Shown here: in pieces, positions 223-32,753 of the stretch
Layout of the letters: the number at the start of each line of letters is the position of its first letter
Numbering within the stretch: the stretch's first letter is position 1
Notes under the pieces: model-generated
The model's input: only the letters and a program-made list of their open reading frames with translations
What the model was told of the DNA's origin: nothing
Databases searched by the model: none
Source: an uncultured Veillonellaceae bacterium
GTDB taxonomy: Bacteria; Bacillota; Negativicutes; UBA1444
Assembly (NCBI GenBank): GCA_964609115.1
Contig: CAZSRN010000003.1
Span: forward strand, 1 to 32,753
DNA length: 32,753 nucleotides
Direction of reading: 5' to 3'
Position numbers and translations under genes: made by a program

Positions 223-255
223 TAGGCAATACACAGGGTATTGCCTATTTATTTT
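223..255 (+). terminator. Second hairpin followed by a T-rich tail, abutting the stop codon of the minus-strand ORF
   Basis: Perfect 9-bp stem TAGGCAATA/TATTGCCTA (223-231 / 239-247) with loop CACAGGG, then TTTATTTT on the plus strand. There is no U-tract on the minus strand. Confidence 0.35.
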
Positions 256-872: not shown

Positions 873-896
873 AAATTTCGTCCTCCTTGAGTACTG

Positions 897-1208: not shown

Positions 1209-1226
1209 AACCGTTCCTCCTATCGT

Positions 1227-2495: not shown

Positions 2496-3867
2496 GGCGC
2501 GCCACCTCCTCTTCATCAAAATAAGCTTCATACAGATCTTCCCGATACGTTTTGTGCCTGCGTTCCAAAAACGTATTGACGCACTTGTCCAGCAGCAGAG
2601 CCGTTCCTGTGTAGCCCACCGACAAAATCCGTTGTGCGCCCAGACGATCCTGTATTGGAAACCCGATTCGCACCAAAGGAATATCGGCCTGTTCTTCCAG
2701 ATACTTTCCGGCCGACGGTCCCATGGCCAGATTGGCGCCTGCGCTTAGACTCTGCGACAGGATTTCCGCCATATCCGTTTCTTCCATCACCCACGTCGGT
2801 TCCAAACTGGCTGACAACAATTTTCGAATACTTTCCCGCCAAATTTCACTGCCGCCGCCAGTCGCCACCACGCTCGGAAACATACCGTTTTCAGCGCATA
2901 ATCCGCTTAACGCATGAACCATTTCCGGATCACCGAACAGCACCGGTCGAAGCTGGAACGAAAGTTTATGGGCGTCGATCATCGCGTCCATCAACAGGCC
3001 GCGCTCCCGTTGCAACGGCAAGGGAATGTCTTTCCCTGTAGCAATCGTCAGTGCCTGAATAAATTTGTCAACATTGGCTAAGCCTATAGGGATTGGCAGT
3101 TTTACCACCGGAACATCATACGTATCTTTCAGCCAAATACCCGGAGACATTTTGTCATCCACAGGACCACCCAGCTCCAACGTCACCACTGCTCCGGACA
3201 TCTGCCGAATGGAGTTCAGCGAAGTTCCCCCTTCGGCAATTTTTCCGTAGGAGGGCTCATACGGTCGATCCATAGTTTCGCTGATATCCGGCAGCATAGT
3301 ATATTTCGCGCCAAACAGGTCCAACCAACGCTTTATTTCGCGCAAATCCGCCGGACTAAGCGCCGCCGGAACAATGACGTTAATTCCGGTATGCATCGGC
3401 GTAGGCGCCGTCAACTGGGAAACCAATTCCCGCAGTGTACTCCAATACCCCTCGGTATGTGTTCCTCCATAGCCCGGCGTCGCAGCTGTGACAATTTTAC
3501 ATTCACACTTGGTTTCCCGCTGATATTCATGGGCAATCCTCCGAATATCTTCGCCTATGGTTTCAGCCAGACAAGTGGTCAAAATGCCTATGATTTCCGG
3601 CTTGTACACACGTCGCACATTATCCATCGCTTTTTTCAGATTCGCTTGTCCGCCGTACACGGTACCTTTTTCATTCAGCGAAGAGGAGGCCACATCGACC
3701 GGTTCATTAAAATGTTCGGCAATGTGCCTGCGCATATAAGTACTACAACCTTGGGAGCCATGCAACAAGGCCATGGAGCCTTCTACGCCCTTCATCGCCA
3801 AAATACCACCCATCGGCATGCACATATGGCAAGGGTTCCGGGATAAATCCCGACTATGTTTAGGCAT
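2485..3867 (-). CDS. nifN: NifN, nitrogenase cofactor scaffold subunit
   Basis: Carries NifK/NifN-family motifs (LLHGSQGCSTYMRRH, GILTTCLAETIGEDI) and sits directly after nifE. The ATG at 3867 (MPKHSRD) has AAGGGGG 8 nt upstream and overlaps nifE by 8 nt. Confidence 0.88.
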   Translation of the reverse strand: MPKHSRDLSRNPCHMCMPMGGILAMKGVEGSMALLHGSQGCSTYMRRHIAEHFNEPVDVASSSLNEKGTVYGGQANLKKAMDNVRRVYKPEIIGILTTCLAETIGEDIRRIAHEYQRETKCECKIVTAATPGYGGTHTEGYWSTLRELVSQLTAPTPMHTGINVIVPAALSPADLREIKRWLDLFGAKYTMLPDISETMDRPYEPSYGKIAEGGTSLNSIRQMSGAVVTLELGGPVDDKMSPGIWLKDTYDVPVVKLPIPIGLANVDKFIQALTIATGKDIPLPLQRERGLLMDAMIDAHKLSFQLRPVLFGDPEMVHALSGLCAENGMFPSVVATGGGSEIWRESIRKLLSASLEPTWVMEETDMAEILSQSLSAGANLAMGPSAGKYLEEQADIPLVRIGFPIQDRLGAQRILSVGYTGTALLLDKCVNTFLERRHKTYREDLYEAYFDEEEVARHAL

Positions 3868-5218
3868 GCGCCACACCCCCTTTCACAGCGTTCCACACCG
3901 GAGACCCCAACGTTGAATATACTTCTGCGGCAAAATTCACAGCGCCGGCATATCCACTGAGCGGATGTTTGCGGTCATGGTTGTGGTCTACAAACGCAAC
4001 GCCCAATTTATAGGCCAACGGACGTTCCTTGACGCCGCCGACGAGAAGGTCAGCGCCCTGTTCCAGCATAAACCGCTCCAACTCCGCCGGATTCGCGTCA
4101 TCCATGATTACCGCGCCTTCCTCCACCAAGGTATCCATCTTTTCATACTCTTCTTTTCGTCCGGTTTGCGTTCCGATCATGACGACTTCCATCCCGATTT
4201 CACGGAACTGTTTGATGAGGGATATCGCCTTGAACCCTCCGCCGACGTATACAGCCGCCCGCTTCCCCTGTAAGCGCTCCCTGTATTTGAGAATCTGAGG
4301 CATCACCCGCGCACTTTCTTCTGCAATCAATTTTTCCACTCGGCTGCTGATTTCTTCATCATCAAAGTGTTTGGCAATGGCTCGCAACGATTCGGCCGTA
4401 TCGGCAAGGCCCAGGAAAGAAACCGACAGACAGGGAATCCCATAAGCTTCCTCAAGTTTCCCCGCCAGATAATGCATGGACCCGGCGCACTGAATGATAT
4501 TCAAGTTGGCCTTGGCTGCGCCGCGTATAGCTTCATATCGGGAATCGCCGGTGAAAACCACATTGACTTCCACTCCGATTCGTTTCAGGTAGCCTCGGAT
4601 AATCCACGCTTCTCCGGCAAGATTGAAGTCGCCGAGATAATTCAGGCACGGTCGTGAATCGGGTTTCCATCCATGCCGGGGAGCATCAATGAGCCGAAAC
4701 AAAACATCACAGGCAGCGCGATAGCCTGCCGACTTGCTGCCGATGAACCCACTGGACTGAACAGGCAGCACCGGAATGTCATATTTTCTGGAAGCCGCTT
4801 TGCAGACGGCTTCCAAATCATCGCCGATTACCCCGACGACACAGGTAGAATAAACAAACACCAAGGGGGGCTTAAATTGGGGAATCAGTTCATCCAATGC
4901 GGCGCTCAGTTTTTTCTCACCGCCGAAAATAATGTCTTTTTCCTTGAGATCTGTGCAAAAACTATTGCGATATAAATCGGCGCCGCTGTTCAGGCTGCCC
5001 CGAATGTCCCACGTATAGCTGGCGCATCCTATCGGGCCATGTACGAGATGCAGGGCGTCAGCCACTGGGTTGAGCACCACCCGCGCACCGCAATATACGC
5101 AGGCGCGCTGGCTTACGCAGCCGGCCTCGCTGTCGGCCTCACATTGAATGGTCTGTTTCTTGCGGCCTTTTTGAATGATGGATTTTTGCCGGGTGTCGAG
5201 AATCGGCTGACTGCCCAT
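3860..5218 (-). CDS. nifE: NifE, nitrogenase cofactor scaffold subunit
   Basis: Carries NifD/NifE-family motifs (HLVHGPIGCASYTWDIRGS, IIFGGEKKL, STCVVGVIGDDLEAV) and lies between nifK and nifN. I prefer the ATG at 5218 (MGSQPIL), with GGAGGTG 8 nt upstream, over the GTG at 5227. Confidence 0.9.
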   Translation of the reverse strand: MGSQPILDTRQKSIIQKGRKKQTIQCEADSEAGCVSQRACVYCGARVVLNPVADALHLVHGPIGCASYTWDIRGSLNSGADLYRNSFCTDLKEKDIIFGGEKKLSAALDELIPQFKPPLVFVYSTCVVGVIGDDLEAVCKAASRKYDIPVLPVQSSGFIGSKSAGYRAACDVLFRLIDAPRHGWKPDSRPCLNYLGDFNLAGEAWIIRGYLKRIGVEVNVVFTGDSRYEAIRGAAKANLNIIQCAGSMHYLAGKLEEAYGIPCLSVSFLGLADTAESLRAIAKHFDDEEISSRVEKLIAEESARVMPQILKYRERLQGKRAAVYVGGGFKAISLIKQFREIGMEVVMIGTQTGRKEEYEKMDTLVEEGAVIMDDANPAELERFMLEQGADLLVGGVKERPLAYKLGVAFVDHNHDRKHPLSGYAGAVNFAAEVYSTLGSPVWNAVKGGVAHA

Positions 5219-5241
5219 GACTTTCACCTCCCATTTATCTT

Positions 5242-6630
5242 TTACATTACCAGTTCGAAGTCTTCATCCGCCGCATCCCGATCCTGTCGGTCCAACAGCG
5301 CTCCGCTGATCATCTCAATCAAACGCATTGCGCCTCGATACCCCACGACCGGCAGATAGGAATGGACGCTTCGGTCCAGAATCGGGAACCCCAACCGCAC
5401 AAAAGGCAAATCTTCCGCCTTTGCAATAAATTTTCCATAGGTATTGCCGATGAGCAAATCCACCGGTTCATTTTTGATCCATTGATGCAAGGTGAAAAGA
5501 TCACCGGCGGATTTTACATTAGCCTGGATTCCAGCGGTATCGAGCATTTCTTTTATTTCGCCTTCGAAGCCTGCCATGCCGGACCCCAGTGCGCCACCCG
5601 GCGTACCCGTAAGCACATGGACCGGTTTCATTCCAAGGCTGAGCAAGAACTCCACCATCGACGCCACAATATCCGGATCACCAAACACTGCAACCGTCTT
5701 TCCATGAAAATGGAAATGCGTATCTGTCATGATGTCCACCAACTGACCCCGTTCTTCTTCCAGCTCCCATGGCGCCTCCTTGGCGAACGCGCCACGCAAG
5801 GCCATGATAAAGGCATCTGTCGCTTTTACGCCAATGGGTGTTTTCAGCGTAACTGCCGGCACTTTGCACTTCTTTTCCAGAGTTTCCGCCGCATCGGAAG
5901 AGGCGAAACGTCCCAGCGCCAGACTCAGTTTGGAATCCCCTGTCTTTTTCAACTCGGCCAGTGTCACTCCTCCGCGGGGATACATCTGAAACGATCCGGT
6001 CATTGGTGAATCGACAACACCTGACGTATCCGGGAACATAATAGAGTCGATTCCCATTGCTCCTGTAATTCGTTTGATCTCGCGCATATCGCCTGGATTT
6101 ACAAAACCGGGGATGATATTGACCCTGTCTTCTTTCTCCGGCAAACAGGCCTCGGAAAAATAGGTAACCATGGCCTTGGTCATATTGGAAAAGCCGGTAA
6201 TGTGAGACCCCTGATAACTTGGAGTGTTGGCGTGAAATACCACTTTCCCTTCCGGAACTTCCGCCTGCTTTATGATGGTCGGCACATCGTCGCCGATAGT
6301 CTCGGACAGGCAGGTAGTATGGACGGCCATCACCTCGGGATTATAAATCTCAAAAACATTTTTGATGGCGGTTTTCAAATTGGCCCCTCCGCCAAATACG
6401 GATGCGCCTTCTGTAAAGCTGCTCGTCGATGCCATGATCGGATCTCTGAAGTGCCGGGTAAGATGCATTCGATGGTAGGAGCAGCATCCCTGGGACCCAT
6501 GACTATGCGGCAAACAACCGTGAATCCCAAGTGCAGCATACATGGCCCCGATAGGTTGACAGGTTTTTGCGGGATTGATCATGCCGCCGCTTGTTCGTTC
6601 AATGATTTTTTTGGGCGTTGCATCCAGCAT
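5242..6630 (-). CDS. nifK: NifK, Mo-nitrogenase MoFe protein beta chain (short N-terminus type)
   Basis: Contains CQPIGAMYAALGIHGCLPHSHGSQGCCSYHR and HTTCLSETIGDD. The start ATG shares one base with the nifD TGA (TGATG junction at 6628-6632). Confidence 0.93.
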   Translation of the reverse strand: MLDATPKKIIERTSGGMINPAKTCQPIGAMYAALGIHGCLPHSHGSQGCCSYHRMHLTRHFRDPIMASTSSFTEGASVFGGGANLKTAIKNVFEIYNPEVMAVHTTCLSETIGDDVPTIIKQAEVPEGKVVFHANTPSYQGSHITGFSNMTKAMVTYFSEACLPEKEDRVNIIPGFVNPGDMREIKRITGAMGIDSIMFPDTSGVVDSPMTGSFQMYPRGGVTLAELKKTGDSKLSLALGRFASSDAAETLEKKCKVPAVTLKTPIGVKATDAFIMALRGAFAKEAPWELEEERGQLVDIMTDTHFHFHGKTVAVFGDPDIVASMVEFLLSLGMKPVHVLTGTPGGALGSGMAGFEGEIKEMLDTAGIQANVKSAGDLFTLHQWIKNEPVDLLIGNTYGKFIAKAEDLPFVRLGFPILDRSVHSYLPVVGYRGAMRLIEMISGALLDRQDRDAADEDFELVM

Positions 6631-8243
6631 CAGGCCTCGCCTCCCTCATTCAATTGCCCATCCAATAAGGGCTGACCCTTCCACGGCGGGGTAATGAAAT
6701 TCCATGTGGGAGAAGCAAAGGCCATACTTATATCCCGGGCAAAGTTCACCGCGCCTTTGAACCCGGCATAGGGGCCGCTGTAATCGTAGGAATGGATCTG
6801 TTTTGCCGGAATGCCCATTTTTTGCACCACATACTTGTCCTTGATGCCTGATGCGAAAATATCCGGTTTCAACAATCGAATGAATTCTTCCGTCTCATAA
6901 TGATTCAAGTCATCCACAATAATACTGCCGTCTTTCATATCTACATTCAGTCCTTTGTAATTACTCAATGGAATTTTCGCCCGCAATTCTTCCGCGATTT
7001 CCGGCGTCAATTTGACGCAATACCTTTCAGTATCCCGCTCCACATGAAGTTCGGGAATGTTTTTGCTGTCCGAATCGGTTTTAATGGTCGGAATGACATG
7101 ACGCCCTTCATAATCGTCGCGGTGGGCAAATTCATAACCCGCCAACACCGTTTCCACCCCAAGTTCTGCAAACAGACCTTGGTAATGATGCCCACGGGAA
7201 CCGCCAACAAAACAAAAAGCTCTTTTCCCGTCGCAGATTTTCCGGTATTGATCCATGCTGGGCTGAATATTGGCCAGTTCGCGCATAATCACTTCCTCTG
7301 TCTTGCGGGTCAGTGTTTCATCGTTAAAATATTGAGCCATGTTCCGCAAGGATTCAACGGTGGAATGAATGCCGATGAAATTAACTTTCAACCAGGGAGT
7401 CCCGTATTTGGTTTCCAACATATCGGCGATGTAATTGATGGATCGGTGACATTGAACCAAATTCAGCTCAGCCGTATGCGCCTGTCTCAGTTCGTCGTAC
7501 GAACCATCTCCTGTCATTACGGATACCACGTGGTATCCGATCTCTTTCAGTACGCGCTCGACCTCCCAACCATCGCCGCCGATGTTGTACTCACCAAGAA
7601 TATTGATGGCGAAAGGCTTCGGTGATTTTTCTTCCGTGGAGTTCCCGATGACCTTGTCCATCAGAATATTATTGGCAATGTGATGCCCGGCGGATTGACT
7701 CACGCCTTTATATCCCTCACAGTTAAACGCCAGCACCTGAATCCCGTGTTTAGCCTCCGCCGCTTTGGCCACCGCCTGTATATCGTCGCCGATCAGCCCG
7801 ACCGGACAGGTGGCCGAAATTGTGATGGCTTTGGGATTAAAAATTTTCAGTACCTCATCGATAGTTGCCGTCAACTTCTTTTCCCCGCCGAATACAATGT
7901 CTTTTTCCTGCATATCGGTGGAAAAGCAGTAGTTTAGAAAATTCTCGCCGGGATCTTCCGTTTTCCCCTTATTGCGCCGGGTTCCCCAGGCATAATAACT
8001 GCAGCCGATCGGCCCATGAACAATATGAATCATATCCTTAATGGGTCCCAGAACCACGCCCTTGCATCCGGCATACGCGCAACCCCGGTTTGTAATGATC
8101 CCCGGTATCGTTCGAGTATTCGCTTCGATTTCCTGATCCGGTTGCGAACAATCTTTAACCAAAATATGCTTGCTGCGATTTTTCTGCACCTTGCCGGGAA
8201 GCTTCCCCAGTATTTCAGTCAATTGATTCTCCGTCATCGCCAT
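6630..8243 (-). CDS. nifD: NifD, Mo-nitrogenase MoFe protein alpha chain, with the long insertion typical of anaerobe-type NifD
   Basis: Contains HIVHGPIGCSYYAWGTRR, IVFGGEKKL, LVQCHRSINY (candidate FeMo-co Cys265) and IHSYDYSGPYAGF (candidate His484). No delta-subunit gene lies between D and K, so this is Mo-type rather than Vnf/Anf. AGAGGAGGTG is 6 nt upstream of the ATG. Confidence 0.95.
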   Translation of the reverse strand: MAMTENQLTEILGKLPGKVQKNRSKHILVKDCSQPDQEIEANTRTIPGIITNRGCAYAGCKGVVLGPIKDMIHIVHGPIGCSYYAWGTRRNKGKTEDPGENFLNYCFSTDMQEKDIVFGGEKKLTATIDEVLKIFNPKAITISATCPVGLIGDDIQAVAKAAEAKHGIQVLAFNCEGYKGVSQSAGHHIANNILMDKVIGNSTEEKSPKPFAINILGEYNIGGDGWEVERVLKEIGYHVVSVMTGDGSYDELRQAHTAELNLVQCHRSINYIADMLETKYGTPWLKVNFIGIHSTVESLRNMAQYFNDETLTRKTEEVIMRELANIQPSMDQYRKICDGKRAFCFVGGSRGHHYQGLFAELGVETVLAGYEFAHRDDYEGRHVIPTIKTDSDSKNIPELHVERDTERYCVKLTPEIAEELRAKIPLSNYKGLNVDMKDGSIIVDDLNHYETEEFIRLLKPDIFASGIKDKYVVQKMGIPAKQIHSYDYSGPYAGFKGAVNFARDISMAFASPTWNFITPPWKGQPLLDGQLNEGGEA

Positions 8244-8260
8244 GGAAACACCTCCTCTTT

Positions 8261-8671
8261 TTACAGTGCCAACTCTCCGCGCTCCGCAGTTCGCACGCGC
8301 ACCACATCCGATATCGGCAAAATAAATATTTTACCGTCGCCCACATTGTTCTCCGTCCGATTGGCGCCGATAATCGCCTGCACGATGGATTCCACTTCGT
8401 TATCTTTGGCGATGATATGAAACATCCGCCGGGGAATCAACCGCGCCCCGTCCAGGAATCCGTCAATCAGCATTTCCGCTTCCTTGGAATCTTCGCCGAT
8501 CGCCATTTCCATCATGTTCGCCTTGCGGGCTGCAATAACGCTTTTATCCGTTACCAGCCGACCCCTTCCCAGCACTTTCAATGCGGTAAATCCGGCAGCA
8601 CCGGAGTCAATCAGGGCTTTTTTCGTTGCATTGGTTTTATTCATTCTCACAACGGCTATTATCTCTTTCAT
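8261..8671 (-). CDS. nifI2: NifI2, PII-family nitrogenase switch-off regulator
   Basis: 136 aa PII-like protein (IIAVVR...LKVLGRGR...GDGKIFILPISDVVRVRT) with an extended T-loop region. It is the second of two PII genes between nifH and nifD. Confidence 0.85.
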   Translation of the reverse strand: MKEIIAVVRMNKTNATKKALIDSGAAGFTALKVLGRGRLVTDKSVIAARKANMMEMAIGEDSKEAEMLIDGFLDGARLIPRRMFHIIAKDNEVESIVQAIIGANRTENNVGDGKIFILPISDVVRVRTAERGELAL

Positions 8672-8680
8672 AGCACCCTC

Positions 8681-9007
8681 CTACAGCTCTTTGGCGCCAG
8701 TGGATACCGTGTAAGCTTCTTCCATGGGACTGACAAAAATCTTGCCGTCACCGAATGCTCCCTTTTCGCTGGTCTTGGCCGAACGCAGGATTACGCTGAC
8801 AATATCGTCCTTGTCGGCATCCTTGACGGCCATAATAATCATCACTTTAGGAATTTCGTCGTACACAATGTTACCGATTTTAATCCCTTTTTGTTTGCCC
8901 CGGCCTACAACTTCCACAACAGTAGCTGCGTTAAATCCTGCAGAGGTTAGCTCATAAAGGACCTCATCCCGCTTTTCCGGTCGGACTACGGCTTTAATCA
9001 GATACAT
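8681..9007 (-). CDS. nifI1: NifI1, PII-family nitrogenase switch-off regulator
   Basis: 108 aa PII-like protein (LIKAVVRPEK...VVGRGKQKG...GDGKIFVSPMEEAYTVSTG), immediately downstream of nifH. Confidence 0.85.
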   Translation of the reverse strand: MYLIKAVVRPEKRDEVLYELTSAGFNAATVVEVVGRGKQKGIKIGNIVYDEIPKVMIIMAVKDADKDDIVSVILRSAKTSEKGAFGDGKIFVSPMEEAYTVSTGAKEL

Positions 9008-9028
9008 CCTTCTTATCCTCCTTCGCTA

Positions 9029-9931
<903 letters not shown>

Positions 9932-12178: not shown

Positions 12179-13498
12179 TTACTCCAAGATTTTTTTCAAT
12201 ACAATTCGATACATTTTGCGGGGTCGGCCGGCTCCCCGATATTCCTCGCCTGTTTCGACCGCCATTCCATTTGCCGCCAATGTTCCCAGCAGGCGTCTTG
12301 CATTGCGTTCGGTCATGGAAAGATACTGCGCCAACGTTTCGGCGCCCAATATTTCCCCGTCAATTTTCGCAAAAACCGATATCAGCCGATTCAACGTCGT
12401 CCCACTTACATTCAGTTGTTTTGCCAAGGCCAGGGTTTCGGCATTGTCACTCCGGATGGAATATCGCAATTGAAGTTCCGAATTCAAAGGGCCGACGACC
12501 ATCTTATCATCCAGTACCACCATCCATTTTCCCTTTCCTTTTCGTTTCGCCAATCCAAGCGCGATCATGGCGTTTTCATTGGCATTGTATGCGGTATCGC
12601 CAAACCCGATTCCTCCGCTGATCGTGATGGCCAGGCGCTTACCGGCCTCATCCATAATCGGCATACGGGTAAATCCCTGGGTAATTTCTTCCATGGCTCC
12701 CCGAGTCGAATAAATAATAAACCGGCCGTTTCCCTGCATCACAATCGCGCCCTTTACCTTCTCGGCAAAATTCAGCAGAATTTCATGCAATTGCAATTCG
12801 ACTTTCAGTACGGCATAGCCGGAAACCGCCTCGCGGCTGAAATCGTCATACCCATCCATTGCGATATGCAAGATGGCAATTTGTCCCGCTTTGGACAATA
12901 ATGCATCCGCTTTGCTCACGGCCAGATCCAACATCGAGCGAATATTGCTCTTGGTCGGCCAAATTCTAAAAGCCACGACACCATGACGCTTCAATTCTTG
13001 ATAAGTAGCATAAAAACAGGTCACTGCCACTTTTGTTTTTCCCGCGTTCCACAAATCAAGATGAAACTTGGTGAGTTCACTGGCGGAAACGACATTGTCA
13101 TAATCATTTACATAGATTTGCGGCAGCGCCGTCTGCGCATCTTCAAAATTTTCAATGATTTCCTGTCGGCTAAATGTATCAAAGCTCATACTGCCGACCG
13201 GTCGGTTTTCCCTTGCCAAATAGAGCAGCACCCGGTAAATGCTGGTTCCCGTATGCGGCATAAACAACTTGGGGGTAATGCTGTCTTTCACCGCAATCGC
13301 ATAACGATAGGGTACCTTGCCGGAAAACATCCACATGTCGACATCTCCGTCATGGCGACGGATAATATCCGGAACCTCGGATGCATCTTCATATATATAC
13401 CCTGCAACAATCATTTTTTCCAGGTAATCGGCAGCGACTTCCTCAATAAGTTTTACCGAATCACCAGGACCAACGACGCCAATTCTAATTTTTCGCAT
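12179..13498 (-). CDS. Putative transcriptional regulator: N-terminal sensor-like region, GGDEF-like (degenerate) domain and C-terminal helix-turn-helix
   Basis: ITISGGIGFGDTAYNANENAMIALGLAKRKGKGK resembles a GGDEF-like fold lacking GGDEF/GGEEF. The C-terminal LSMTERNARRLLGTLAANGMAVETGEE..GRPRKMYRI looks like a winged HTH. I prefer the ATG at 13498 (MRKIRIGVVGPG), which has GAGG upstream, over 13519. The gene is divergent from the M20/AbgT pair. Confidence 0.65.
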   Translation of the reverse strand: MRKIRIGVVGPGDSVKLIEEVAADYLEKMIVAGYIYEDASEVPDIIRRHDGDVDMWMFSGKVPYRYAIAVKDSITPKLFMPHTGTSIYRVLLYLARENRPVGSMSFDTFSRQEIIENFEDAQTALPQIYVNDYDNVVSASELTKFHLDLWNAGKTKVAVTCFYATYQELKRHGVVAFRIWPTKSNIRSMLDLAVSKADALLSKAGQIAILHIAMDGYDDFSREAVSGYAVLKVELQLHEILLNFAEKVKGAIVMQGNGRFIIYSTRGAMEEITQGFTRMPIMDEAGKRLAITISGGIGFGDTAYNANENAMIALGLAKRKGKGKWMVVLDDKMVVGPLNSELQLRYSIRSDNAETLALAKQLNVSGTTLNRLISVFAKIDGEILGAETLAQYLSMTERNARRLLGTLAANGMAVETGEEYRGAGRPRKMYRIVLKKILE

Positions 13499-13588
13499 GG
13501 TATTCCTCGCTTTCTCCATTGGAGTATAGCATTTTTGACCATTTTTGTATTGTCTTCACTCAATCGCTGTATTTCTAAAAAACATTTT

Positions 13589-16671: not shown

Positions 16672-18804
16672 TCAAAATCCCAGTGCGGTTCCCCCCTGAT
16701 ATACAATAAATGCCATGCCCCACGCCAGCGCAGTTGAATAAGCGAAACTAAACGCAGGCCACTTCCACGAATTCGTTTCCCGTCTTATCACCGCCAACAC
16801 CGCCAGACACGGAGAATACAACAGCGTAAACACCATCAAACTTAATGCAACCAGTGGACTAAAAGTCGGGTCAGCTGCCAGCGCCTCCTGCAGAGAGCGG
16901 GAATCTTCCTCCACATCCCCCACACTGTAAATCGTCGCTAATGAACTCACCAGCACTTCTTTTGCCGCGACAGCCGAGACGAGGCCCACTCCCATTTTCC
17001 AGTCGAAACCAAGCGGTTTGATTACCGGCTCAATCGCATGGCCGAATTGTCCTGCGTAGCTGAGCGCAATCTTTTCCGAAGCCTGTTCTTTGTCCAGCTG
17101 TTCCAACAAGGGTTTCGCCGCTTCATCGTCATATTTTTCCGTCACCGCCGTCTTTGCAGCCTCATAGTCTTTACTGTATTGAACTTCCGCCGGATAATTC
17201 GTGAGAAACCAAATCAAGATCGAGGCCGCCAAAATCAACGTGCCTGCTTTCTTCACATATAATACGCTGCGTTCCCACATATGAAGCAAAATGCTTCGCG
17301 GGGTCGGGAAATGATACGACGGCATCTCCATGATAAAAGGTTCCGTGTTCCCTGGAAACAGCAATTTGCGAAAAATCAGTGACATCAAAATCGCCAGCAC
17401 AATTCCCAGAAAATAAATCGAGAACAGCACACTGCCGGCCATATGCTCCGGAAAGAAAGCCGCGATCAGCAATGTATAAACCGGCAACCTCGCACTGCAG
17501 CTCATTAACGGAGAGACTAAAATCGTCACCATGCGGTCGCCCTTATTTTCCAGCGTCCGGGTCCCCATGACCGCCGGTACGCTGCAACCAAACCCAAGCA
17601 ACAGCGGGATAAAAGATTTTCCATGAAGCCCTACCGCCCGCATGATCCGATCCATAACAAAAGCCGCCCGCGCCATATAGCCGGTATCTTCCAACAGAGC
17701 AATTCCAAAAAACAGTAGCAATATACTGGGCAGAAAAGTAATAACACTGCCCACTCCGCCAATAATACCGTCCACAAGCAGCGATCGCAATTCGCCTTCG
17801 GCCATGGTTGAGCCTACCGCGCCTCCCAGCCAGGTCACTCCCTCTTCGATCCAACCCTGAGGAATTTCGCCCACTGTAAACACAATATTAAAGAGCAGCC
17901 ACATGATGCCGAAAAAAATCGGCAACCCCAGCACGCGGTGCGTTAGAATCTTGTCAATCTTGTCCGATGGCGTTTCCGAATTCTGCGCCCGGAAATCAAC
18001 AAATTCCCTGTATACTTCCGCAACATGGCAATATCGCCGTTCCGCAATGGCTATTTCAAGATCTTCGCCCATGACTACGCTTGTTTTATTGCGAATAGCT
18101 TCAATGACCGGCAGCACTTTGCTTCCGCCCGGCGTATCAGCAACCGATTGCCGAATCTCCGCATCATTTTCCAAAAGCTTTAGCGCCAGCCACCGGCTCG
18201 GATATTTAAGATTTCGCAGAGGCGCCAACACATCCATGGTTTGCTCGATTGCCGTTTCGATTTTATTACCGTAATGAATTGCAAACGGTTTAAAATTATG
18301 CTTTGCAGAAGCCTCCGCAACAGCTTTTAACAATGCTTCAGTTCCCTGATTTCGGTTGCCGACCAATCCGACCACCGGAATCTCAAAATGTTTTTGCAAA
18401 GCTTTCTCATCTAACTTGATTCCAGCTTGCGCCGCCACATCCGTCATATTTAGAGCCAATACCATGGGTCGTTCCAGTTCCAGCAGTTGCACGGCCAAAT
18501 AAAGATTTCGCTCCAAGTTGGAAGCATCCAAAATATTGACAATCAGGTCAGGCTTTTCATCAATAATAACATTACGCGCCACGACCTCATCCATCGAATT
18601 TGCCGTTAGACTGTAAGTCCCCGGCAAATCAATCACAACCATATCCTGTCCTTGGAAGCGCCGGAATCCCTCTCTCCGTTCCACGGTTACTCCCGGATAA
18701 TTTCCCACATGTTGCCGCGCTCCCGTAATATTGTTAAAAATCGTGGTTTTGCCGGAATTTGGGTTTCCAGCCAGTGCTATTGTCATGCAGGCTGCTGCCA
18801 TCAT
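16672..18804 (-). CDS. feoB: FeoB, ferrous iron transporter (GTPase plus permease)
   Basis: TIALAGNPNSGKTTIFN G1 motif and VIDLPGTYSL G3 motif, followed by a long polytopic C-terminal region. ATGA overlap with the feoA stop at 18801-18804. Confidence 0.93.
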   Translation of the reverse strand: MMAAACMTIALAGNPNSGKTTIFNNITGARQHVGNYPGVTVERREGFRRFQGQDMVVIDLPGTYSLTANSMDEVVARNVIIDEKPDLIVNILDASNLERNLYLAVQLLELERPMVLALNMTDVAAQAGIKLDEKALQKHFEIPVVGLVGNRNQGTEALLKAVAEASAKHNFKPFAIHYGNKIETAIEQTMDVLAPLRNLKYPSRWLALKLLENDAEIRQSVADTPGGSKVLPVIEAIRNKTSVVMGEDLEIAIAERRYCHVAEVYREFVDFRAQNSETPSDKIDKILTHRVLGLPIFFGIMWLLFNIVFTVGEIPQGWIEEGVTWLGGAVGSTMAEGELRSLLVDGIIGGVGSVITFLPSILLLFFGIALLEDTGYMARAAFVMDRIMRAVGLHGKSFIPLLLGFGCSVPAVMGTRTLENKGDRMVTILVSPLMSCSARLPVYTLLIAAFFPEHMAGSVLFSIYFLGIVLAILMSLIFRKLLFPGNTEPFIMEMPSYHFPTPRSILLHMWERSVLYVKKAGTLILAASILIWFLTNYPAEVQYSKDYEAAKTAVTEKYDDEAAKPLLEQLDKEQASEKIALSYAGQFGHAIEPVIKPLGFDWKMGVGLVSAVAAKEVLVSSLATIYSVGDVEEDSRSLQEALAADPTFSPLVALSLMVFTLLYSPCLAVLAVIRRETNSWKWPAFSFAYSTALAWGMAFIVYQGGTALGF

Positions 18805-26960: not shown

Positions 26961-27491
26961 TCAGGCAATCATGTCCACTTTTTGTCCCAGCGCCTCATTA
27001 TTCTGCTGCGCCTTGGAATCCGAAGCAGTAGTGGTGCGGGTTTCCCCGCCGGATACATACACTTTGCCGCATTCGGGGCAAACCGCTGTAAATAGACGGA
27101 CACTCTGCGAAACTACGCGTCGCCCGTCCTTTTGCGCATTGGCCTGTTCATTGCCGACGTGCTCCTGCTCATGAGACATTACGACGGCAGCGGAACTCGC
27201 CGGGTCAATATGTCCCGGCGCCTTGAAGGATACTCCCGGATCATTGGATCCATCCTGATACGTGCGTTCCTTGCATGTCTGGCATTCAATCTGCCCGGTT
27301 CGTTTTAGCCGCTGCGTTTCAGGAGTGGTTTTATCCTTGTTTTTTGTAAGGTCCAGCAGATAAGCCGGAGATTGCGCAGCAGATGCCCCGGCATTTTCAG
27401 CGGTATTTCCCCCACCCGCCTGACCTGCCTGGTACATCTTCGGTTCCATGCCCATTCGGGAAAAAGCAACCCCGGTCAATCCTGCCACCAC
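26961..27491 (-). CDS. SprA-related / putative zinc metalloprotease-like family protein (function uncharacterised)
   Basis: 176 aa with a low-complexity Gly/Ala/Gln N-terminus. It then reads ECQTCKERTYQDGSNDPGVSFKAPGHIDP...SHEQEHVGNEQANAQKDGRRVVSQSVRLFTAVCPECGKVYVSGGETR. The HExxH-like motif followed by a GGE strand matches the SprA-related family pattern as I recall it. GTG start with GAGAGG upstream. Confidence 0.5.
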   Translation of the reverse strand: MVAGLTGVAFSRMGMEPKMYQAGQAGGGNTAENAGASAAQSPAYLLDLTKNKDKTTPETQRLKRTGQIECQTCKERTYQDGSNDPGVSFKAPGHIDPASSAAVVMSHEQEHVGNEQANAQKDGRRVVSQSVRLFTAVCPECGKVYVSGGETRTTTASDSKAQQNNEALGQKVDMIA

Positions 27492-27582: not shown

Positions 27583-27759
27583 CTATTTCGTATAGATATT
27601 CAAGCCAATTTTAATTTCTTCGTTTTCCGGCACCGGTTGATTGCCTTCCGTGCTGGCAATGATCGTCGATTTTCCACTGCTGGACTTGCCGAAGCGCTGG
27701 CTCAAATCCACCTTGATGGTTAGAATATTGCCTTCCGTTGTCATTTCAATATTTTTCAT
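27583..27759 (-). CDS. 58-aa conserved-looking small protein (not in the ORF track, which lists no ORF shorter than 60 aa): MKNIEMTTEGNILTIKVDLSQRFGKSSSGKSTIIASTEGNQPVPENEEIKIGLNIYTK
   Basis: I translated it by hand from the minus strand. GGAGG lies 9 nt upstream of the ATG at 27759 and TAG is at 27583-27585. The pattern G..L.I.(I/V)DL....G.S.SGKS..(I/V)AST.GN......(I/V)K(I/L)GLN.Y.K resembles a widespread small hypothetical-protein family whose name I cannot recall. Confidence 0.55.
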   Translation of the reverse strand: MKNIEMTTEGNILTIKVDLSQRFGKSSSGKSTIIASTEGNQPVPENEEIKIGLNIYTK

Positions 27760-27934
27760 ACTCCATATCCTCCTACTATCTCTTTGAATTGTTCAGGCTC
27801 ATTCAAATTCTCCTCTTGTTTGCCAAATTCCTTCCCAAGGGACTGGGTTTCTGCAGCCGCCCACAGCAGCCGCAGGAATTTTTCGGAAACAGCGCGAAAT
27901 AGGAAAAGCAACCTACTATGGGGGACTGATCATC

Positions 27935-30781
27935 ATGTCCAAGCGTACCCTCAATCGCAGAACTTTTCTCCAAACGGCATCCGTACTGGGAGCTGCGGCT
28001 TTTCTCCCCGTTTCATGGCCGCTTCCCGCAACCGCAGAAGACGCGCCTCCATCTTTGCAGTTCACCGGGCAGGCTAAGAGTACTCTGGGCGAATGGTCGG
28101 CAACATTGGACCTTTCCAAAGGAGCTCTGCATCCAGGAACCCTTCTGTCCATACAAGCGGAACTGACGTTGTCCCCGGCGTGGCGTACTGCCGTCACTCA
28201 GGCCGAGGGCTTGCCCGGCGAATATTTGCTGCTGATTACTACAGAACGCCTGATTGATTCTCAAGGCTGGATGCGGTTTCCCGCTGACGAGCGTATGTCA
28301 ACGTTGCTCACCCCTACAGGTCTTGCCGTCGAAGGCGGCTCTTCCAGCGCCGTGAGCCGATATGCGGGGAGCCGATATAAAAATCCCGTGGATGAATTGG
28401 TGAAAGTTCCGGTTCAACAAATGCAACTCAGCGGCAACAACGGCAAGCTCATTTTTTCAGCCAAACCTTTAGTCCCTCCGGACATTCCGCCGGGCATCTA
28501 TCGGCTGCGTTTTGATTTTGGTTTCATTCTCAACAAAAAATGGCGTAGCTTGAACAATGAAGGGTTCGCCAACCGTCCAAGAGATGCAGCCGATTTATCT
28601 TTGCTGTATTCACCGCCCCTGCTATGCAGCAATCGGGACTTCCGCGGAAAATTCGTCGATGCGGCTTCCATTGTTCCCCGAATATACTGGATTTTACTGG
28701 ATCGTTACAATTCCAACGGCTATCAGGGCGTGGTCGCCGATGAGGACAAAAAACATTTTGCCCTATCCGGTCGCAATATTATCCCGGACGAAGTAATCTT
28801 ACCCATGCTTCACGGCAACGGAAGCAAGCTCGCATATAATCTGGAGCCGACTTTCCCCGCCAATTTGATGGACAAGCAACGAATCTTGCCGCTGAATCCG
28901 GCATCGGGAGAGTTGTCTTTGCAGATGATTGATCCTGCCGGTAAAAAAATTGATCTCGGCACTGCGCCGTTCATTAAGGAACTAAATGGCCGGCCTACAA
29001 CCGGAAATCTTGCTTTTACCGCCTGGAAACCGGAAACCTATGGCCGCTACACGGTCATAGCCAAAGGTTGGATCGCCGATACTTGGAATACTCGTTATTA
29101 TGGCGGCGGAACCTATCATTTTTGGATTGCCAAACGCATGACAATGGGGACTGCAACATTTCAAGGCATGTCATTTCCCGTAGGCGCCCGTTTGGGACAA
29201 GCCATCGGCTTCTCACCGGCCGTTCCGGCTGATGTAGTCGCCAAGGCAGATTTGTATCCCGCTTCCGATCCCGCCAGACAAAAGACTCTCTCCTATCGCG
29301 GCAAAGCCTCTGTCGGAGGGATATTCGGACCGGCGCAGGGAATGAAGCCGTTCGTGCTGGAAGCACCGGGAGAATATCACAGTCATGTATTGGCAACTTA
29401 CACCGACGGCGACGGCCATCTGTGGGTCTGCAGCATGCGTCACGCAGGCGTAGTCTACCCAGTCGATTCGCCACTGGAAGCCCACGGCAAAAAATTGAAA
29501 ATTGACAATCAATATCTGGACCGGGGGGAAACGCACCGTGAAGGCTATGTGGAACCCGGCGACAATTTCCGGTTTCTGGATCATATCAATTTTCCCTACC
29601 AGCAGGGAGATTGTCTGCTGATCGCCAGTGAAGGACAAGGCGCCAACAAGATCGAACCCGTCTTGACCTATGTGCTGTCCCCCGACACAGCGCCTTACGA
29701 AAAAAGCCTGAACTCCATCGGCGCTACCAATGCGCGCATTCTTACAACCAATGGATTGTCGCCTCATCTCTATCCGGAGTACATCTCGGATTGGGCCTAT
29801 TATTATGCGGCGGCTCCCCGCCCCGGCCTTTCTTCGCGTTTCCTTGTAGGAGAAAATGGTGTGCGCGCTCCCTACTGGCCCACCAGCACTTCCAGTTTCG
29901 GCGGTCAGATCGGTGCATCCGGCAATGGAGATTTTCCGGGCGATATTTACCGTCTGTTGGGCGGCGTTGTGTTGCGACGCAGCGGTCAGTCTCCCCTTTA
30001 TGCCGGTTATATGGCCAGCGCGTTTATTTTGCCGCACGGCAGCAACAACAACCGGATCATTGCCCCCGGTTCCGAAGAGTTAATCGGTGCAGACGGCACG
30101 CCCGCCCGTTTTTTTCTGGTACCGGTCCGCCCCGGCATGGTATATGAGCAAGGCGCCCTGTTCACGCCGGTTTTGCAAATCGATCCGATAGTTCCGGCGC
30201 AAATACAGTTTACCTTGCACTATCCTGACGGAACACGCAAAACTTCCAGTGGCGTCGGCGATGCGTTCGGTTACTTTGTCGGCGCAGACAAATGGCAACT
30301 CAGTCAGCCCGGAGTTTACCGCTACGCAGTTCAGGCTACGTGGCAGGGTTTTACCGGCCGGGTCCCCGGCCTTACTCCCAGGGTGGGATCCATCTTTGTA
30401 CTTGAAAAAAACAGACCCGTCGGCAAAGGGCTTCGATTATCCTTAAAAAATCAACAAACTTTCCCCATCATTGAGGGCCTGTTAATTGAAGGAACCACTA
30501 CCGCAGAATCGGTCGAATATACCATGATCACGCCGGGAGCCGTCATCGAGCAAGGTGCCTTACCCGTTGTAAACGGCCGCTTTTTTTACCGATTTGAACC
30601 GGCGCGGGTCAATCAGAAAATCCCCATCTACGACATTGAAAACCGTAGAACCCACCGCAAGGAAATCGGCCGGATCATTCACTTCACTTTTTTTGCCGCG
30701 GAAAAAGACGCAACCGGCGCGGTGCATCATTCCTATGCACGTGTTATCATGCGGGGAAATACCGCAATTTACGCACAATAA
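27935..30781 (+). CDS. Tat-signal-bearing 948-aa exported protein of unknown family
   Basis: The N-terminus MSKRTLNRRTFLQTASVLGAAAFLPVSWPLPATAEDA has a twin-arginine motif (RRTFL), a hydrophobic core and an A-x-A cleavage context. I recognise no catalytic or cofactor motif in the mature part. Confidence 0.85.
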   Translation: MSKRTLNRRTFLQTASVLGAAAFLPVSWPLPATAEDAPPSLQFTGQAKSTLGEWSATLDLSKGALHPGTLLSIQAELTLSPAWRTAVTQAEGLPGEYLLLITTERLIDSQGWMRFPADERMSTLLTPTGLAVEGGSSSAVSRYAGSRYKNPVDELVKVPVQQMQLSGNNGKLIFSAKPLVPPDIPPGIYRLRFDFGFILNKKWRSLNNEGFANRPRDAADLSLLYSPPLLCSNRDFRGKFVDAASIVPRIYWILLDRYNSNGYQGVVADEDKKHFALSGRNIIPDEVILPMLHGNGSKLAYNLEPTFPANLMDKQRILPLNPASGELSLQMIDPAGKKIDLGTAPFIKELNGRPTTGNLAFTAWKPETYGRYTVIAKGWIADTWNTRYYGGGTYHFWIAKRMTMGTATFQGMSFPVGARLGQAIGFSPAVPADVVAKADLYPASDPARQKTLSYRGKASVGGIFGPAQGMKPFVLEAPGEYHSHVLATYTDGDGHLWVCSMRHAGVVYPVDSPLEAHGKKLKIDNQYLDRGETHREGYVEPGDNFRFLDHINFPYQQGDCLLIASEGQGANKIEPVLTYVLSPDTAPYEKSLNSIGATNARILTTNGLSPHLYPEYISDWAYYYAAAPRPGLSSRFLVGENGVRAPYWPTSTSSFGGQIGASGNGDFPGDIYRLLGGVVLRRSGQSPLYAGYMASAFILPHGSNNNRIIAPGSEELIGADGTPARFFLVPVRPGMVYEQGALFTPVLQIDPIVPAQIQFTLHYPDGTRKTSSGVGDAFGYFVGADKWQLSQPGVYRYAVQATWQGFTGRVPGLTPRVGSIFVLEKNRPVGKGLRLSLKNQQTFPIIEGLLIEGTTTAESVEYTMITPGAVIEQGALPVVNGRFFYRFEPARVNQKIPIYDIENRRTHRKEIGRIIHFTFFAAEKDATGAVHHSYARVIMRGNTAIYAQ

Positions 30782-30819
30782 TAGAACGCATTCCAGACTT
30801 TTGAAGGGGAGGGATACAA

Positions 30820-32244
30820 ATGAGTACATATGACCTGCTGATAAAAAACGGGTACGTTATCGATCCCGGCAGTGACCTGCAAGGCTGTTACGATGTTGCA
30901 ATTCTCAATGGGAAAATTGAAAAAATCGCCGCCTCGATGGACCCCACGCAAGCAGAAGAATTTGTCGATGCGGAAGGAAATTGCGTTATCCCCGGCATTA
31001 TTGACTTGCACACCCACATGAGCGGAGATTTCGGCGGCCGCTATGCCCACAAAATGGCTGCCGAAGTTGGTGTGACGACCACTCTGGATATGGCGGGGCC
31101 CATCGAAAGTTCGGTCGAAATGGCCGCAAAATGCGGTACCGGCATCAACGTGGCCTGCATTCATATGGTGCGAGGAAATGTAACCATCGAAGGAGAAGAC
31201 CCCGACAACAAGGCCATTGGAGCCTTTCTCGATAAAGCCATGAAGGCTGGGGCTATTGGCTGCAAAATTCTTGGCGGACATTATCCGTTGACTCCTGAAG
31301 CTTCAGCCCGGATCATTGAGCTGGCGAATGAACGCCAAGCCTATGTCGCATTTCATGCAGGCACCCAAAATACCGGTTCGAACATCCAGGGTTTTCTGGA
31401 AGCAGTAGAGTTGGCCCAGGGAAAAGCTTTGCATATCGCCCACATAAATTCCTACTGCCGCGGGCAGGTTCAAAACGCTGCCGCAGAGGCAGCCGAAGCA
31501 ATCAAATCCCTCGTCAACCATCCCAACATTACGTCTGAATCGTATATTTCACCCTATAACGGCACAAGCGGCAAATGTGCAAATGGACGCCCCGAAAGCA
31601 ATGTCACAAAAACCTGTCTTACGACAGGCGGTTTTGAACCTACGGAGGAAGGCATGGTCCAGTCCATTCTGAAAGGTTGGACTCATGTGAATGTTCCCGA
31701 AGGGGGACGTGTCGTCTTAAAAGTTGGCGAAGCCGCTCTTGCCTATTGGCGTTCCCAAAATACGGACGCCAATGTAAGTTTCGCAATCAATCCGTTTGAA
31801 CCGCGCGTCTGTCTCGCATCCGCAAAACGTCCCGATGGAAGTTTTGTCGTGGATTGCATCAGCACGGACGGAGGCGGCATTCCCCGAAATGTCATCATCG
31901 ACACCGGACTTTCACTTGTAAAATTAAATGCACTCAGTCTGCGGGAGTTTGCAGTCAAAACCAGTTTCAATCCGGCTCGTATTCTGGGGCTTTCGCATAA
32001 AGGCCATTTAGGCTTGGGCATGGATGCAGATATTACCCTAATGAATACCCAAACCCAACAGGCTGTCATGAGTTTTGTCGCAGGAAAACCGGTCATGCAC
32101 AAAGGAATGGTCATAGGCAAAGGTGCAAACTTTATTACAACAGCCGCCGGTAAAGCAGCCATTCAAAATGCCGGACTCCATCCCATCGTTGCCGATCTTG
32201 CAGAAAGTGCTTTTTACACGCGGATAAAAAACAGGGCAATTTAA
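30820..32244 (+). CDS. Amidohydrolase-superfamily metallohydrolase (dihydroorotase / D-aminoacylase-like fold), no signal peptide
   Basis: The N-terminal beta-sandwich lead-in YDLLIKNGYVIDP...AILNGKIEKI is followed by PGIIDLHTHM (HxH metal site). Later FHAG, HIAHINSY and a C-terminal STDGGG Asp follow. GGGGAGGG lies 6 nt upstream of the ATG, 38 nt after the upstream stop. Confidence 0.85.
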   Translation: MSTYDLLIKNGYVIDPGSDLQGCYDVAILNGKIEKIAASMDPTQAEEFVDAEGNCVIPGIIDLHTHMSGDFGGRYAHKMAAEVGVTTTLDMAGPIESSVEMAAKCGTGINVACIHMVRGNVTIEGEDPDNKAIGAFLDKAMKAGAIGCKILGGHYPLTPEASARIIELANERQAYVAFHAGTQNTGSNIQGFLEAVELAQGKALHIAHINSYCRGQVQNAAAEAAEAIKSLVNHPNITSESYISPYNGTSGKCANGRPESNVTKTCLTTGGFEPTEEGMVQSILKGWTHVNVPEGGRVVLKVGEAALAYWRSQNTDANVSFAINPFEPRVCLASAKRPDGSFVVDCISTDGGGIPRNVIIDTGLSLVKLNALSLREFAVKTSFNPARILGLSHKGHLGLGMDADITLMNTQTQQAVMSFVAGKPVMHKGMVIGKGANFITTAAGKAAIQNAGLHPIVADLAESAFYTRIKNRAI

Positions 32245-32260
32245 AAAGGAGAAATTTATT

Positions 32261-32753
32261 TTGCAACAAAAAATTGATGCGCCGGCCATGTTGGAGGACG
32301 AACAGGAATCAGCCTATCTGTATGGTATTCTGAGTGAGCTGGAAGCTCAACCGAAATTAGCCGAACTTTATCAGCGTCTGGCCGCCGCCGAAACCCGTCA
32401 TGCACAGTTCTGGCAAAATGAACTTATCGGGGAACAACAGCCCCTTAAAGCGTATCGGCCCTCTTTGCGGATAAAGTTCATGGTATGGATGGCGCGACGA
32501 TTTGGCGCGAATTCAATCCTTCCCATGCTGGGCTCCGCAGAAAGCCGCAGTTCCACCGCTTATCAATCAGTCAGCATGGATATGGCGGCAGAAGAACGTT
32601 CCCATTCCACTCTGCTTGGGCAAATGCAAAAAATATCAAAAGGCGCAGGGCTGCCCGGACCGGCGGTCGCCCGTTTGGAAGGCCGACATCGCTCCGCCGG
32701 AGGCAATGCACTCAGAGCCGCCGTATTAGGCGCAAGCGATGGACTCGTCTCCA
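32261..32753 (+). CDS. Erythrin (ferritin-like di-iron) domain fused to a VIT1/CCC1 iron transporter domain (MbfA-like); 3' end outside the window
   Basis: The frame is open to the window edge and is absent from the ORF track. TTG at 32261 has AAAGGAG 9 nt upstream; there is an alternative in-frame ATG at 32288. Two ExxH motifs (AAAETRHAQFW, AAEERSHSTL) are followed by GGNALRAAVLGASDGLVS, the VIT1 signature. Confidence 0.8.
   Translation, partial: MQQKIDAPAMLEDEQESAYLYGILSELEAQPKLAELYQRLAAAETRHAQFWQNELIGEQQPLKAYRPSLRIKFMVWMARRFGANSILPMLGSAESRSSTAYQSVSMDMAAEERSHSTLLGQMQKISKGAGLPGPAVARLEGRHRSAGGNALRAAVLGASDGLVS

Follow-up and report, generated by a model that had tools for sequence, protein, structure and literature searches.

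A large, predicted all-beta protein with a Tat signal, from a widespread and so far undescribed family, beside amidohydrolase and VIT1-type genes in an uncultured Negativicutes bacterium

Three consecutive genes on the plus strand lie at the 3' end of a stretch of 32,753 nucleotides from an uncultured Veillonellaceae bacterium of the Negativicutes (contig CAZSRN010000003.1, positions 1 to 32,753; this whole stretch is hereafter called the window). The first gene, g1, encodes a large protein with a twin-arginine (Tat) export signal, the second, g2, encodes an amidohydrolase, and the third, g3, runs off the window end after the beginning of a putative VIT1-type iron transporter. A first-pass annotation, made by a model from the sequence, had described them as an operon led by an exported protein of no recognisable family. 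The three genes and the features of g1 discussed below are the following (ORF, open reading frame):

27920-27925, plus strand: Shine-Dalgarno sequence of g1, GGGGGA, 9 nt 5' of the ATG, read from the sequence
27935-30781, plus strand: g1, ORF with an ATG start, predicted exported all-beta protein of 948 aa
27935-28036, plus strand: Tat signal peptide of g1, residues 1-34 (NRRTFLQ, hydrophobic core and ATA/E site; TIGR01409 and Pfam TAT_signal)
29375-29767, plus strand: g1 residues 481-611, a segment that includes the "His patch" (conservation counts)
29867-29944, plus strand: g1 residues 645-670, conserved Gly-rich loop (W648..Q658..G665-D666-x-P-x-D670), candidate functional or Ca-binding site
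30820-32244, plus strand: g2, amidohydrolase-superfamily enzyme of 474 aa, putative cyclic-amidase type (Pfam Amidohydro_3 and Amidohydro_1)
32261-32753, plus strand: 5' part of g3, ferritin/rubrerythrin-like N-terminal domain of a putative VIT1/CCC1-type iron transporter (translation and homologue)

The gap between g1 and g2 is 38 nt long and contains the purine-rich ribosome-binding site GGGGAGGG, the gap between g2 and g3 is 16 nt long and contains AAGGAG, also purine-rich, and no terminator-like hairpin was found in either. The first-pass annotation had reported this layout, with gaps of 38 and 16 nt, a strong Shine-Dalgarno sequence for each of the two following genes and no hairpin in between. 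The start codon of g3 is the TTG at 32261, and its frame is open through the window end, with 164 codons visible. The two ORFs just 5' of g1 (58 and 176 aa) run on the minus strand, so that a transcription unit begins with g1, as had also been annotated. The gap lengths and the absence of a terminator-like site are compatible with g1 and g2 being on one transcript, which is plausible. An Rfam scan of the whole window gave no match, and thus no riboswitch or leader.

The mature part of g1 has no match to Pfam or NCBIfam models at E<=1, and searches of PDB sequences gave no match with g1 alone, with a profile of 53 close members or with a profile of 38 divergent members. HExxH, CxxCH, P-loop, GxSxG and thioester motifs are all absent from g1, which has only three Cys residues, all at variable positions of the core alignment (A1). 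A literature search found no described family of this kind. Both the statement that g1 belongs to no recognisable family and the remark that its mature part lacks familiar motifs are therefore sustained.

The g1 family is widespread, uncurated, so far undescribed and unusually conserved. At least 563 homologues were retrieved in a word-indexed search, annotated as hypothetical or only after a fused domain; the best 120 are 51-78% identical to g1 and cover at least 77% of the query, and at least 95% of it in all but five cases. An exhaustive profile search, which covered 1.84 billion representatives, yielded at E<=1e-3 a set of 776 clusters (50% identity), 387 of which also reach E<=1e-30. In 72,556 plasmids, no match to g1 was found by tblastn. 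From a scan of one genome per species we obtained 80 g1-family loci, all of them (80/80) in metagenome-assembled genomes (MAGs) of uncultured organisms from soil, peat, groundwater and digesters. Acidobacteriota (Bryobacteraceae, Solibacter, Vicinamibacteria, Holophagaceae and Thermoanaerobaculia) are represented together with Chloroflexota, Verrucomicrobiota, Bacillota, Riflebacteria, Spirochaetota, Planctomycetota, proteobacterial lineages and several Bathyarchaeia, and some MAGs carry two or three copies. Identity to g1 across these phyla, Bathyarchaeia included, is 44-56% over about 900 residues. Such even identity, maintained across the bacterial-archaeal divide, points to strong constraint together with horizontal transfer, by which the family has apparently spread.

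The AlphaFold2 model of g1, for which a 53-sequence alignment was the input, is confident, compact and all-beta (predicted local distance difference test, pLDDT, 86; predicted template-modelling score, pTM, 0.85). It has about seven sandwich-type domains with long 'PGxY...' hairpins as markers, and apart from the signal peptide DSSP assigned only five short helices to it. The recurring beta-sandwich-like strands noticed in the first-pass annotation are thus borne out as far as the all-beta nature of g1 is concerned, but they are not sequence repeats: comparison of eleven segments of the family alignment with hhalign detected no internal repeats (the best pair had 57% probability), and therefore the recurring strands are a structural motif. 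The most conserved core of g1 (residues 424-760) was also modelled alone in search of a hidden catalytic fold. Its pLDDT was then 66, and no Foldseek match below E 1e-3 was found for it. The drop in pLDDT suggests that the modelled domains are interdigitated into one body.

Against the PDB, the complete model gave 49 Foldseek matches below E 1e-3. The best of them (E 7e-12 to 1e-7) are the macroglobulin (MG) domain arrays of C4b, CD109, C3b, C5, TEP1 and A2M, with probabilities of 0.98-1.0 over 680-1100 aligned columns, at an identity of 8-10% and a template-modelling score (TM) of only 0.1-0.16. The 640-aa beta chain of C3b, which is a string of MG domains, is among these matches. Given the low TM, the string of domains matches that of MG proteins, whereas its arrangement does not. 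Lower matches included an archaeal S-layer protein, arrestins and transglutaminase beta-barrels, and no catalytic fold was among the matches. Structure prediction followed by Foldseek, which the first-pass annotation had put forward as a way to place g1, therefore yielded a confident all-beta model, but only arrays of MG or Ig type as its matches. Identities as a cupredoxin or multicopper oxidase, a beta-propeller or a jelly-roll glycosidase were considered and rejected, as no such fold matched.

Like A2M, C3, CD109 and TEP proteins, g1 is predicted to be an extracytoplasmic, all-beta, multi-domain protein. However, it matches no A2M or MG model of Pfam at E<=1, and it has no CGEQ or CxEQ, no conserved Cys, no all-helical thioester domain and no CUB domain. 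An identity as a thioester A2M was rejected for lack of the thioester motif and of the TED domain. The bait region of A2M is variable and exposed, whereas the one long low-confidence loop of g1 (residues 645-660) is highly conserved, and g1 has about 950 aa as opposed to 1500-1650 aa in bacterial A2Ms. Bacterial and archaeal surface proteins with arrays of Ig-like, CarboxypepD_reg or PKD domains (S-layer protein 7ptp, RbmA and FrhA) are weaker Foldseek matches to g1, and divergent members of the g1 family likewise have CarboxypepD_reg, PKD and TIG domains. Nevertheless, such proteins are beads on a string, whereas g1 is modelled as compact and interdigitated, and they are usually far less conserved than g1.

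The N-terminus of g1 reads MSKRTLNRRTFLQTASVLGAAAFLPVSWPLPATA/ED, in which N-R-R-T-F-L-Q precedes a hydrophobic core and then A-T-A/E at residues 32-35. TIGR01409, the NCBIfam twin-arginine model, scores 18.1 bits on g1, above its cut-off of 16.7, and Pfam TAT_signal scores 20.3 bits (E 5e-4), just short of its cut-off of 22.7. In the AlphaFold2 model residues 8-23 are helical, with a low-confidence linker after them. All 22 aligned homologues with 55% identity or more to g1 retain the motif RRxF[LI], and these 22 closest homologues as well as the Riflebacteria copies have RRxF[LI]K. The twin-arginine signal that had been read by eye is therefore confirmed.

Orthologues more than 50% identical to g1 use other signals in other phyla. 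Those of Chloroflexota (52-54% identity) have lipobox signals followed by Pro/Thr-rich linkers and those of Acidobacteriota have ordinary Sec-type signals, which means that these proteins would be exported unfolded and alone. By a crude motif count, 209 near-full members, in which the family core starts within 150 residues of the N-terminus, comprise 43 with Tat-like, 38 with lipobox-like and 128 with other signals. Because the Sec and lipoprotein orthologues retain the same invariant residues as the Tat clade, the family would need neither cofactor insertion in the cytoplasm nor a folded partner, and the Tat route appears to be a preference of the clade or lineage rather than a cofactor need. 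To the first-pass annotation, Tat export had suggested either an unrecognised metal or cofactor site or export as a complex; the lipobox and Sec signals of such close orthologues and the lack of any cofactor motif speak against it. Tat substrates without cofactors are known, such as AmiA/AmiC and SufI of E. coli, PhoD of Bacillus and many Streptomyces hydrolases. g1 resembles them in having a twin-arginine signal on a protein without a recognisable redox cofactor, although it is unrelated to any of these examples in sequence and fold.

In the alignment of the close g1 family the mean column identity is 58% and 125 columns are invariant, including E104, R105, E133, R190, D382, E480, D491, M501, H503, E536, D559, H611, E615, R635, D666, R673 and D750. 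In divergent members (about 25% identity) D382, E480, D559, R629, W648, D666 and D670 are still conserved in more than 90%, and W648, D666 and D670 reach 96-97%. Residues 645-660 (29867-29914) have a pLDDT below 50 despite their highly conserved sequence, with GDxPxD coming next, and they are a candidate for a mobile functional loop. The His-rich central patch of the first-pass annotation exists locally, with 7 His within residues 482-550 as compared to 18 in all 948, but only H503 and H611 are invariant, and only within the close family. Together with M501 they are invariant among members more than 50% identical and replaced in divergent ones, whereas the conservation of E480, D491, H517 (about 80% in divergent members) and D559 is wider. 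According to these alignments, the patch is mostly not a feature of the g1 family.

In many proteins the g1-type module is fused to other domains. In dozens of clusters at 90% identity, a module about 54% identical to g1 precedes an FTP/PepSY propeptide and a thermolysin-like protease of the M4 type, an architecture found in 46 of the 120 best homologues in one search, and the M4 domain has an intact HExxH...ESGALNEA in at least 33 clusters. At six Acidobacteriota loci (L019, L028, L032, L038, L040 and L053) the M4 domain is fused or encoded directly downstream, and other members have an NPP-type phosphodiesterase fused N-terminally. In this large M4-fused subclade, to which P0389-P0436 also belong, the thermolysin-like precursor is extended at its N-terminus by the module, and the extension is of unusual size. 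These M4 precursors and NPP phosphodiesterases of soil bacteria have the module in the same polypeptide in many proteins of Acidobacteriota and Chloroflexota, whereas g1 itself lacks both domains, and the window has neither an M4 nor an NPP gene near it. Judged by fusion only, an association with extracellular macromolecule breakdown is implied.

Divergent members carry further domains: CarboxypepD_reg in 17 of 38 long proteins, and also PKD, FG-GAP, F5/8-C and TIG. In three of them, P0146, P0184 and P0192, an otherwise cofactor-less module is combined with a tri- or tetra-haem cytochrome c domain, the 3-4 CxxCH motifs lying outside the core, and one member of the scanned set matches an MtrC/MtrF-like domain. 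CxxCH is present in only 3 of the 148 representative proteins listed (P0121-P0268).

For the analysis of synteny we used about 85 homologous loci, 65 of which have at least 1.5 kb of downstream sequence. A g2 orthologue directly follows g1 in 2 of these 65, L001 and L008, both from Negativicutes relatives with about 80% identity, and VIT1 is adjacent at no other locus. When all 87 loci were searched with g2 and g3 by tblastn, L001 and L008 alone had g2 orthologues, and L001 alone had g3. In L001, the closest relative (78% identity), the g2 orthologue starts 39 nt after g1; P-type ATPase, PAS-SpoIIE, phosphate-binding-like and GGDEF-EAL genes come after it, and the VIT1 gene is about 8 kb downstream of the g2 orthologue, with four genes between. 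Relatives at 56-68% identity have unrelated neighbours (ferredoxin/TauE, MntP/ABC, CobT/citrate lyase and LuxCE/Agr), and all-against-all clustering of 945 neighbour ORFs revealed no conserved partner, the largest cluster being present in 8 of about 80 loci. The adjacency of g1 and g2 is thus lineage-specific, and that of g3 is seen only in this window. The functional unit of three genes that the first-pass annotation had proposed is not upheld, since their adjacency is lost in related genomes, the very outcome it had named as counting against it. Nor is its suggestion that g2 might hitch-hike with g1 through the Tat system, as no signal-less partner gene is co-conserved and many orthologues are exported by Sec or as lipoproteins.

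The close same-strand genes that follow g1 homologues vary, encoding among others an Amidohydro_3 lipoprotein, a metallophosphoesterase, GH5, a GH29 fucosidase, a nitroreductase and a B12-binding protein. A sulfatase is found within a few kb downstream in five g1-family loci, and several of the downstream hydrolases have signal or lipoprotein-type N-termini. At L009 (4643-6355), in a MAG of Eubacteriales, an Amidohydro_3-type amidohydrolase with its own lipoprotein-like signal is encoded 43 nt after the g1 homologue. This echo of the g1-g2 pairing, with a non-orthologous exported enzyme, is probably a coincidence. The Bathyarchaeia copies (L048, L057, L058, L060 and L084, on MAG contigs of up to 1.1 Mb) are about 50% identical to the Negativicutes protein; at three of these loci a conserved, membrane-anchored ORF of 186-190 aa without Pfam match lies 19-30 nt downstream, and after it comes an AIR-synthase-related gene.

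The product of g2 passes the Pfam gathering scores of Amidohydro_3 (48.7 versus 29.7) and Amidohydro_1 (44.4 versus 25), has the metal motif HTH at residues 64-66 and lacks a hydrophobic N-terminus, which agrees with its first description as an HxH amidohydrolase without export signal. Its nearest PDB relatives are dihydroorotase, hydantoinase, allantoinase and FwdA. With the cyclic amidohydrolases dihydroorotase, hydantoinase and allantoinase it shares the HxH motif and the Pfam families; however, it is far below each of the NCBIfam equivalog cut-offs, at 100/340 (PRK09061), 93/371, 74/393 (FwdA) and 73/576 bits (dihydroorotase). Members of the g2 family at 55% identity or more number over 1000. 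A relative 74% identical to g2 is encoded just downstream of a divergent LysR regulator gene, together with an Asp/Glu-racemase-family gene and a DcuC-type transporter and with no g1 homologue nearby, and a member of the family in Anaerosporomusa stands alone, likewise with no g1 homologue nearby. Judged from such gene neighbourhoods, the g2 family is placed in cytoplasmic catabolic contexts independent of g1, and g2 itself, an ordinary member of its superfamily, is predicted to be a cytoplasmic cyclic-amide amidohydrolase that is functionally unrelated to g1.

The visible part of g3 consists of a putative rubrerythrin-like helical N-terminal domain and then the start of a VIT1 motif (GASDGLVS). 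The Rubrerythrin match is weak (E 0.0023, 18.7 bits versus a cut-off of 22.8). Over 117 aa this part is 63% identical to a 370-aa PF01988 (VIT1) product of L001, and it is from this homologue that we infer the VIT1 part, which would lie almost wholly beyond the window end. The fusion of a ferritin-like domain to a VIT1/CCC1 transporter is an architecture that we take to be already described. The N-terminal domain of g3 would fit it, although its Rubrerythrin match is below threshold and only 164 codons are in the window.

Elsewhere in the window, a nif cluster occupies 249-9931 on the minus strand and comprises nifH (9029-9931), the P-II genes nifI1 and nifI2 (8681-9007 and 8261-8671), nifD, nifK, nifE, nifN, nifB and an AnfO-like gene (249-872). 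The nifB product is a NifB-type radical-SAM/NifX fusion, and the nitrogenase cluster is complete and in the order typical of anaerobes; that a gene of the AnfO family ends an apparent Mo-type nif cluster is slightly unusual. A FeoB iron importer (16672-18804, minus strand) and the VIT1-type exporter (32261-32753, plus strand) share the window with this cluster. An iron- or nif-related role for g1, considered in view of the nif, FeoB and VIT1 genes, was rejected, as these are not syntenic in relatives. The 446-aa ORF at 12179-13519 (minus strand) has no Pfam match at 1e-5 and a weak, sub-cut-off match to a GdpP-type GGDEF-like domain (E 1e-4); with a possible C-terminal helix-turn-helix, it may be a degenerate cyclase-like regulator. 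Two orphan ORFs are divergent from g1: one of 176 aa (26961-27491, minus strand), with two CxxC pairs (CQTC...CPEC) and sub-threshold matches of zinc-ribbon type, and one of 58 aa (27583-27759, minus strand), with no match. L001 differs at this stretch 5' of g1, where it has nitroreductase and flavodoxin-like genes. The other genes of the window include a GltD-like oxidoreductase, a GNAT acetyltransferase, an M20 peptidase with an AbgT transporter, EamA and MarR genes, a TetR-regulated RND efflux pump and CheV, the last two of which are upstream of g1 in L001 too.

According to these data, we propose that the locus would hold three functionally independent genes, adjacent only in this Negativicutes lineage. 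The g1 protein would be self-sufficient and exported, its mature part of about 900 aa forming one compact body of about seven interlocked MG- or Ig-like beta-sandwich domains, and it would act outside the cytoplasmic membrane, that is, in the periplasm of this diderm and lipid-anchored or secreted in other phyla. It would require neither a cytoplasmically assembled cofactor nor a partner protein, and in its clade Tat would simply serve to export a beta protein that is large and folds tightly. g2 may share the transcript of g1 but not its function. The job of g1 could be the capture or cleavage of extracellular macromolecules (protein, necromass or phosphodiester polymers) beside secreted hydrolases, a role suggested because the same module is fused to active M4 proteases or NPP phosphodiesterases in many genomes. 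We consider the structural and genomic part of this account very probable. The functional part, extracellular macromolecule capture or cleavage by the module, takes its best clue from domain fusion and is put forward tentatively, at somewhat below an even chance, and the explanation as a whole, with three independent genes and an exported g1 engaged in extracellular macromolecule turnover, we regard as evenly balanced between right and wrong. In a more specific form, the g1 family might be a new class of extracellular enzyme or a substrate-capture machine that would work with secreted proteases and phosphodiesterases in the turnover of necromass or another ubiquitous polymer in soils and sediments, with a working site at the beta-sandwich interfaces around D382, E480, D559, R629, W648 and the GDxPxD loop, which is possible although we would sooner doubt it than assume it.

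Several observations weigh against a role of g1 in macromolecule turnover or against its independence from g2. The analysis yielded no activity, ligand or catalytic site for g1. The seven widely conserved residues (D382, E480, D559, R629, W648, D666 and D670) may serve the structure or bind Ca instead of taking part in catalysis, and E480 belongs to a strand motif, 'PGEY', that is typical of beta-sandwich domains. The M4 fusions seen among the 80 genome loci are confined to Acidobacteriota. The fusion partners are heterogeneous (CarboxypepD_reg, PKD, FG-GAP, F5/8-C and multihaem cytochrome c), and therefore a generic scaffold role fits as well. Moreover, the spacing of 38-39 nt between g1 and g2 is kept in L001, so that a functional link specific to the lineage is possible.

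Such a scaffold role would make g1 a non-catalytic, macroglobulin-like protein, acting as a protease trap or shield, a surface coat or an adhesin, in which the acidic residues would bind Ca2+ between domains. It is in keeping with the only significant structural matches, which are the MG arrays of protease-trapping and opsonin proteins, an archaeal S-layer protein and adhesins, with the failure to find any catalytic motif or fold in g1, and with the position of conserved Asp residues in hairpin turns and in the GDxPxD loop; even the fusion to M4 proteases would suit an inhibitor or chaperone. However, g1 has neither the thioester motif nor the helical TED domain nor a variable bait region, its TM to MG proteins is only 0.1-0.16, and its identity across phyla and domains, 45-56% over 900 aa, greatly exceeds what would be expected of A2M-like, S-layer or adhesin proteins. 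We therefore regard the scaffold as unlikely, although a serious candidate. The Tat signal of the g1 clade could instead indicate a metallo- or redox enzyme that has escaped recognition and is loaded with metal or cofactor in the cytoplasm, with H503, H611 and M501 as ligands, all three invariant in members more than 50% identical; the three divergent members with tri- or tetra-haem cytochrome c domains, one of which also has an MtrC-like domain, would fit such an enzyme. This is improbable, since orthologues at that same level of identity and with the same invariant His use Sec or lipoprotein signals, the three residues are not conserved in the wider family, CxxCH is confined to 3 of the 148 listed representatives, and neither a metal-site motif nor a cupredoxin-like fold was matched.

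The model of the first-pass annotation, in which g1, g2 and g3 would form one functional operon and g2 could be carried through Tat bound to g1, draws on the tight gaps of 38 and 16 nt with a Shine-Dalgarno sequence for each gene and no terminator between them, on the g1-g2 pair kept in the two closest relatives, and on distant L009, which has a different Amidohydro_3-type amidohydrolase right after its g1 homologue. Nevertheless, only 2 of 65 loci have the g2 orthologue as a neighbour and none has VIT1, which four genes separate in the closest relative, and the g2 family is found independently in cytoplasmic operons. Export of many g1 orthologues by Sec or as lipoproteins is incompatible with co-export of a folded partner, and the amidohydrolase of L009 has its own lipoprotein-type signal. 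Thus we consider this model very improbable.

If the three genes are independent, as we propose, they would be chance neighbours, and the significance of the locus rests on the g1 protein family and not on an operon. This family is defined by a module of about 900 aa, often present in multiple copies and repeatedly fused to active secreted proteases, that has no name, no Pfam model and no sequence relative in the PDB. Should the module prove to be catalytic or to capture substrates, a widespread contributor to the extracellular processing of organic matter would have gone unrecognised; should it be a macroglobulin-like shield, it would represent a new minimal, thioester-less prokaryotic branch of that architecture.

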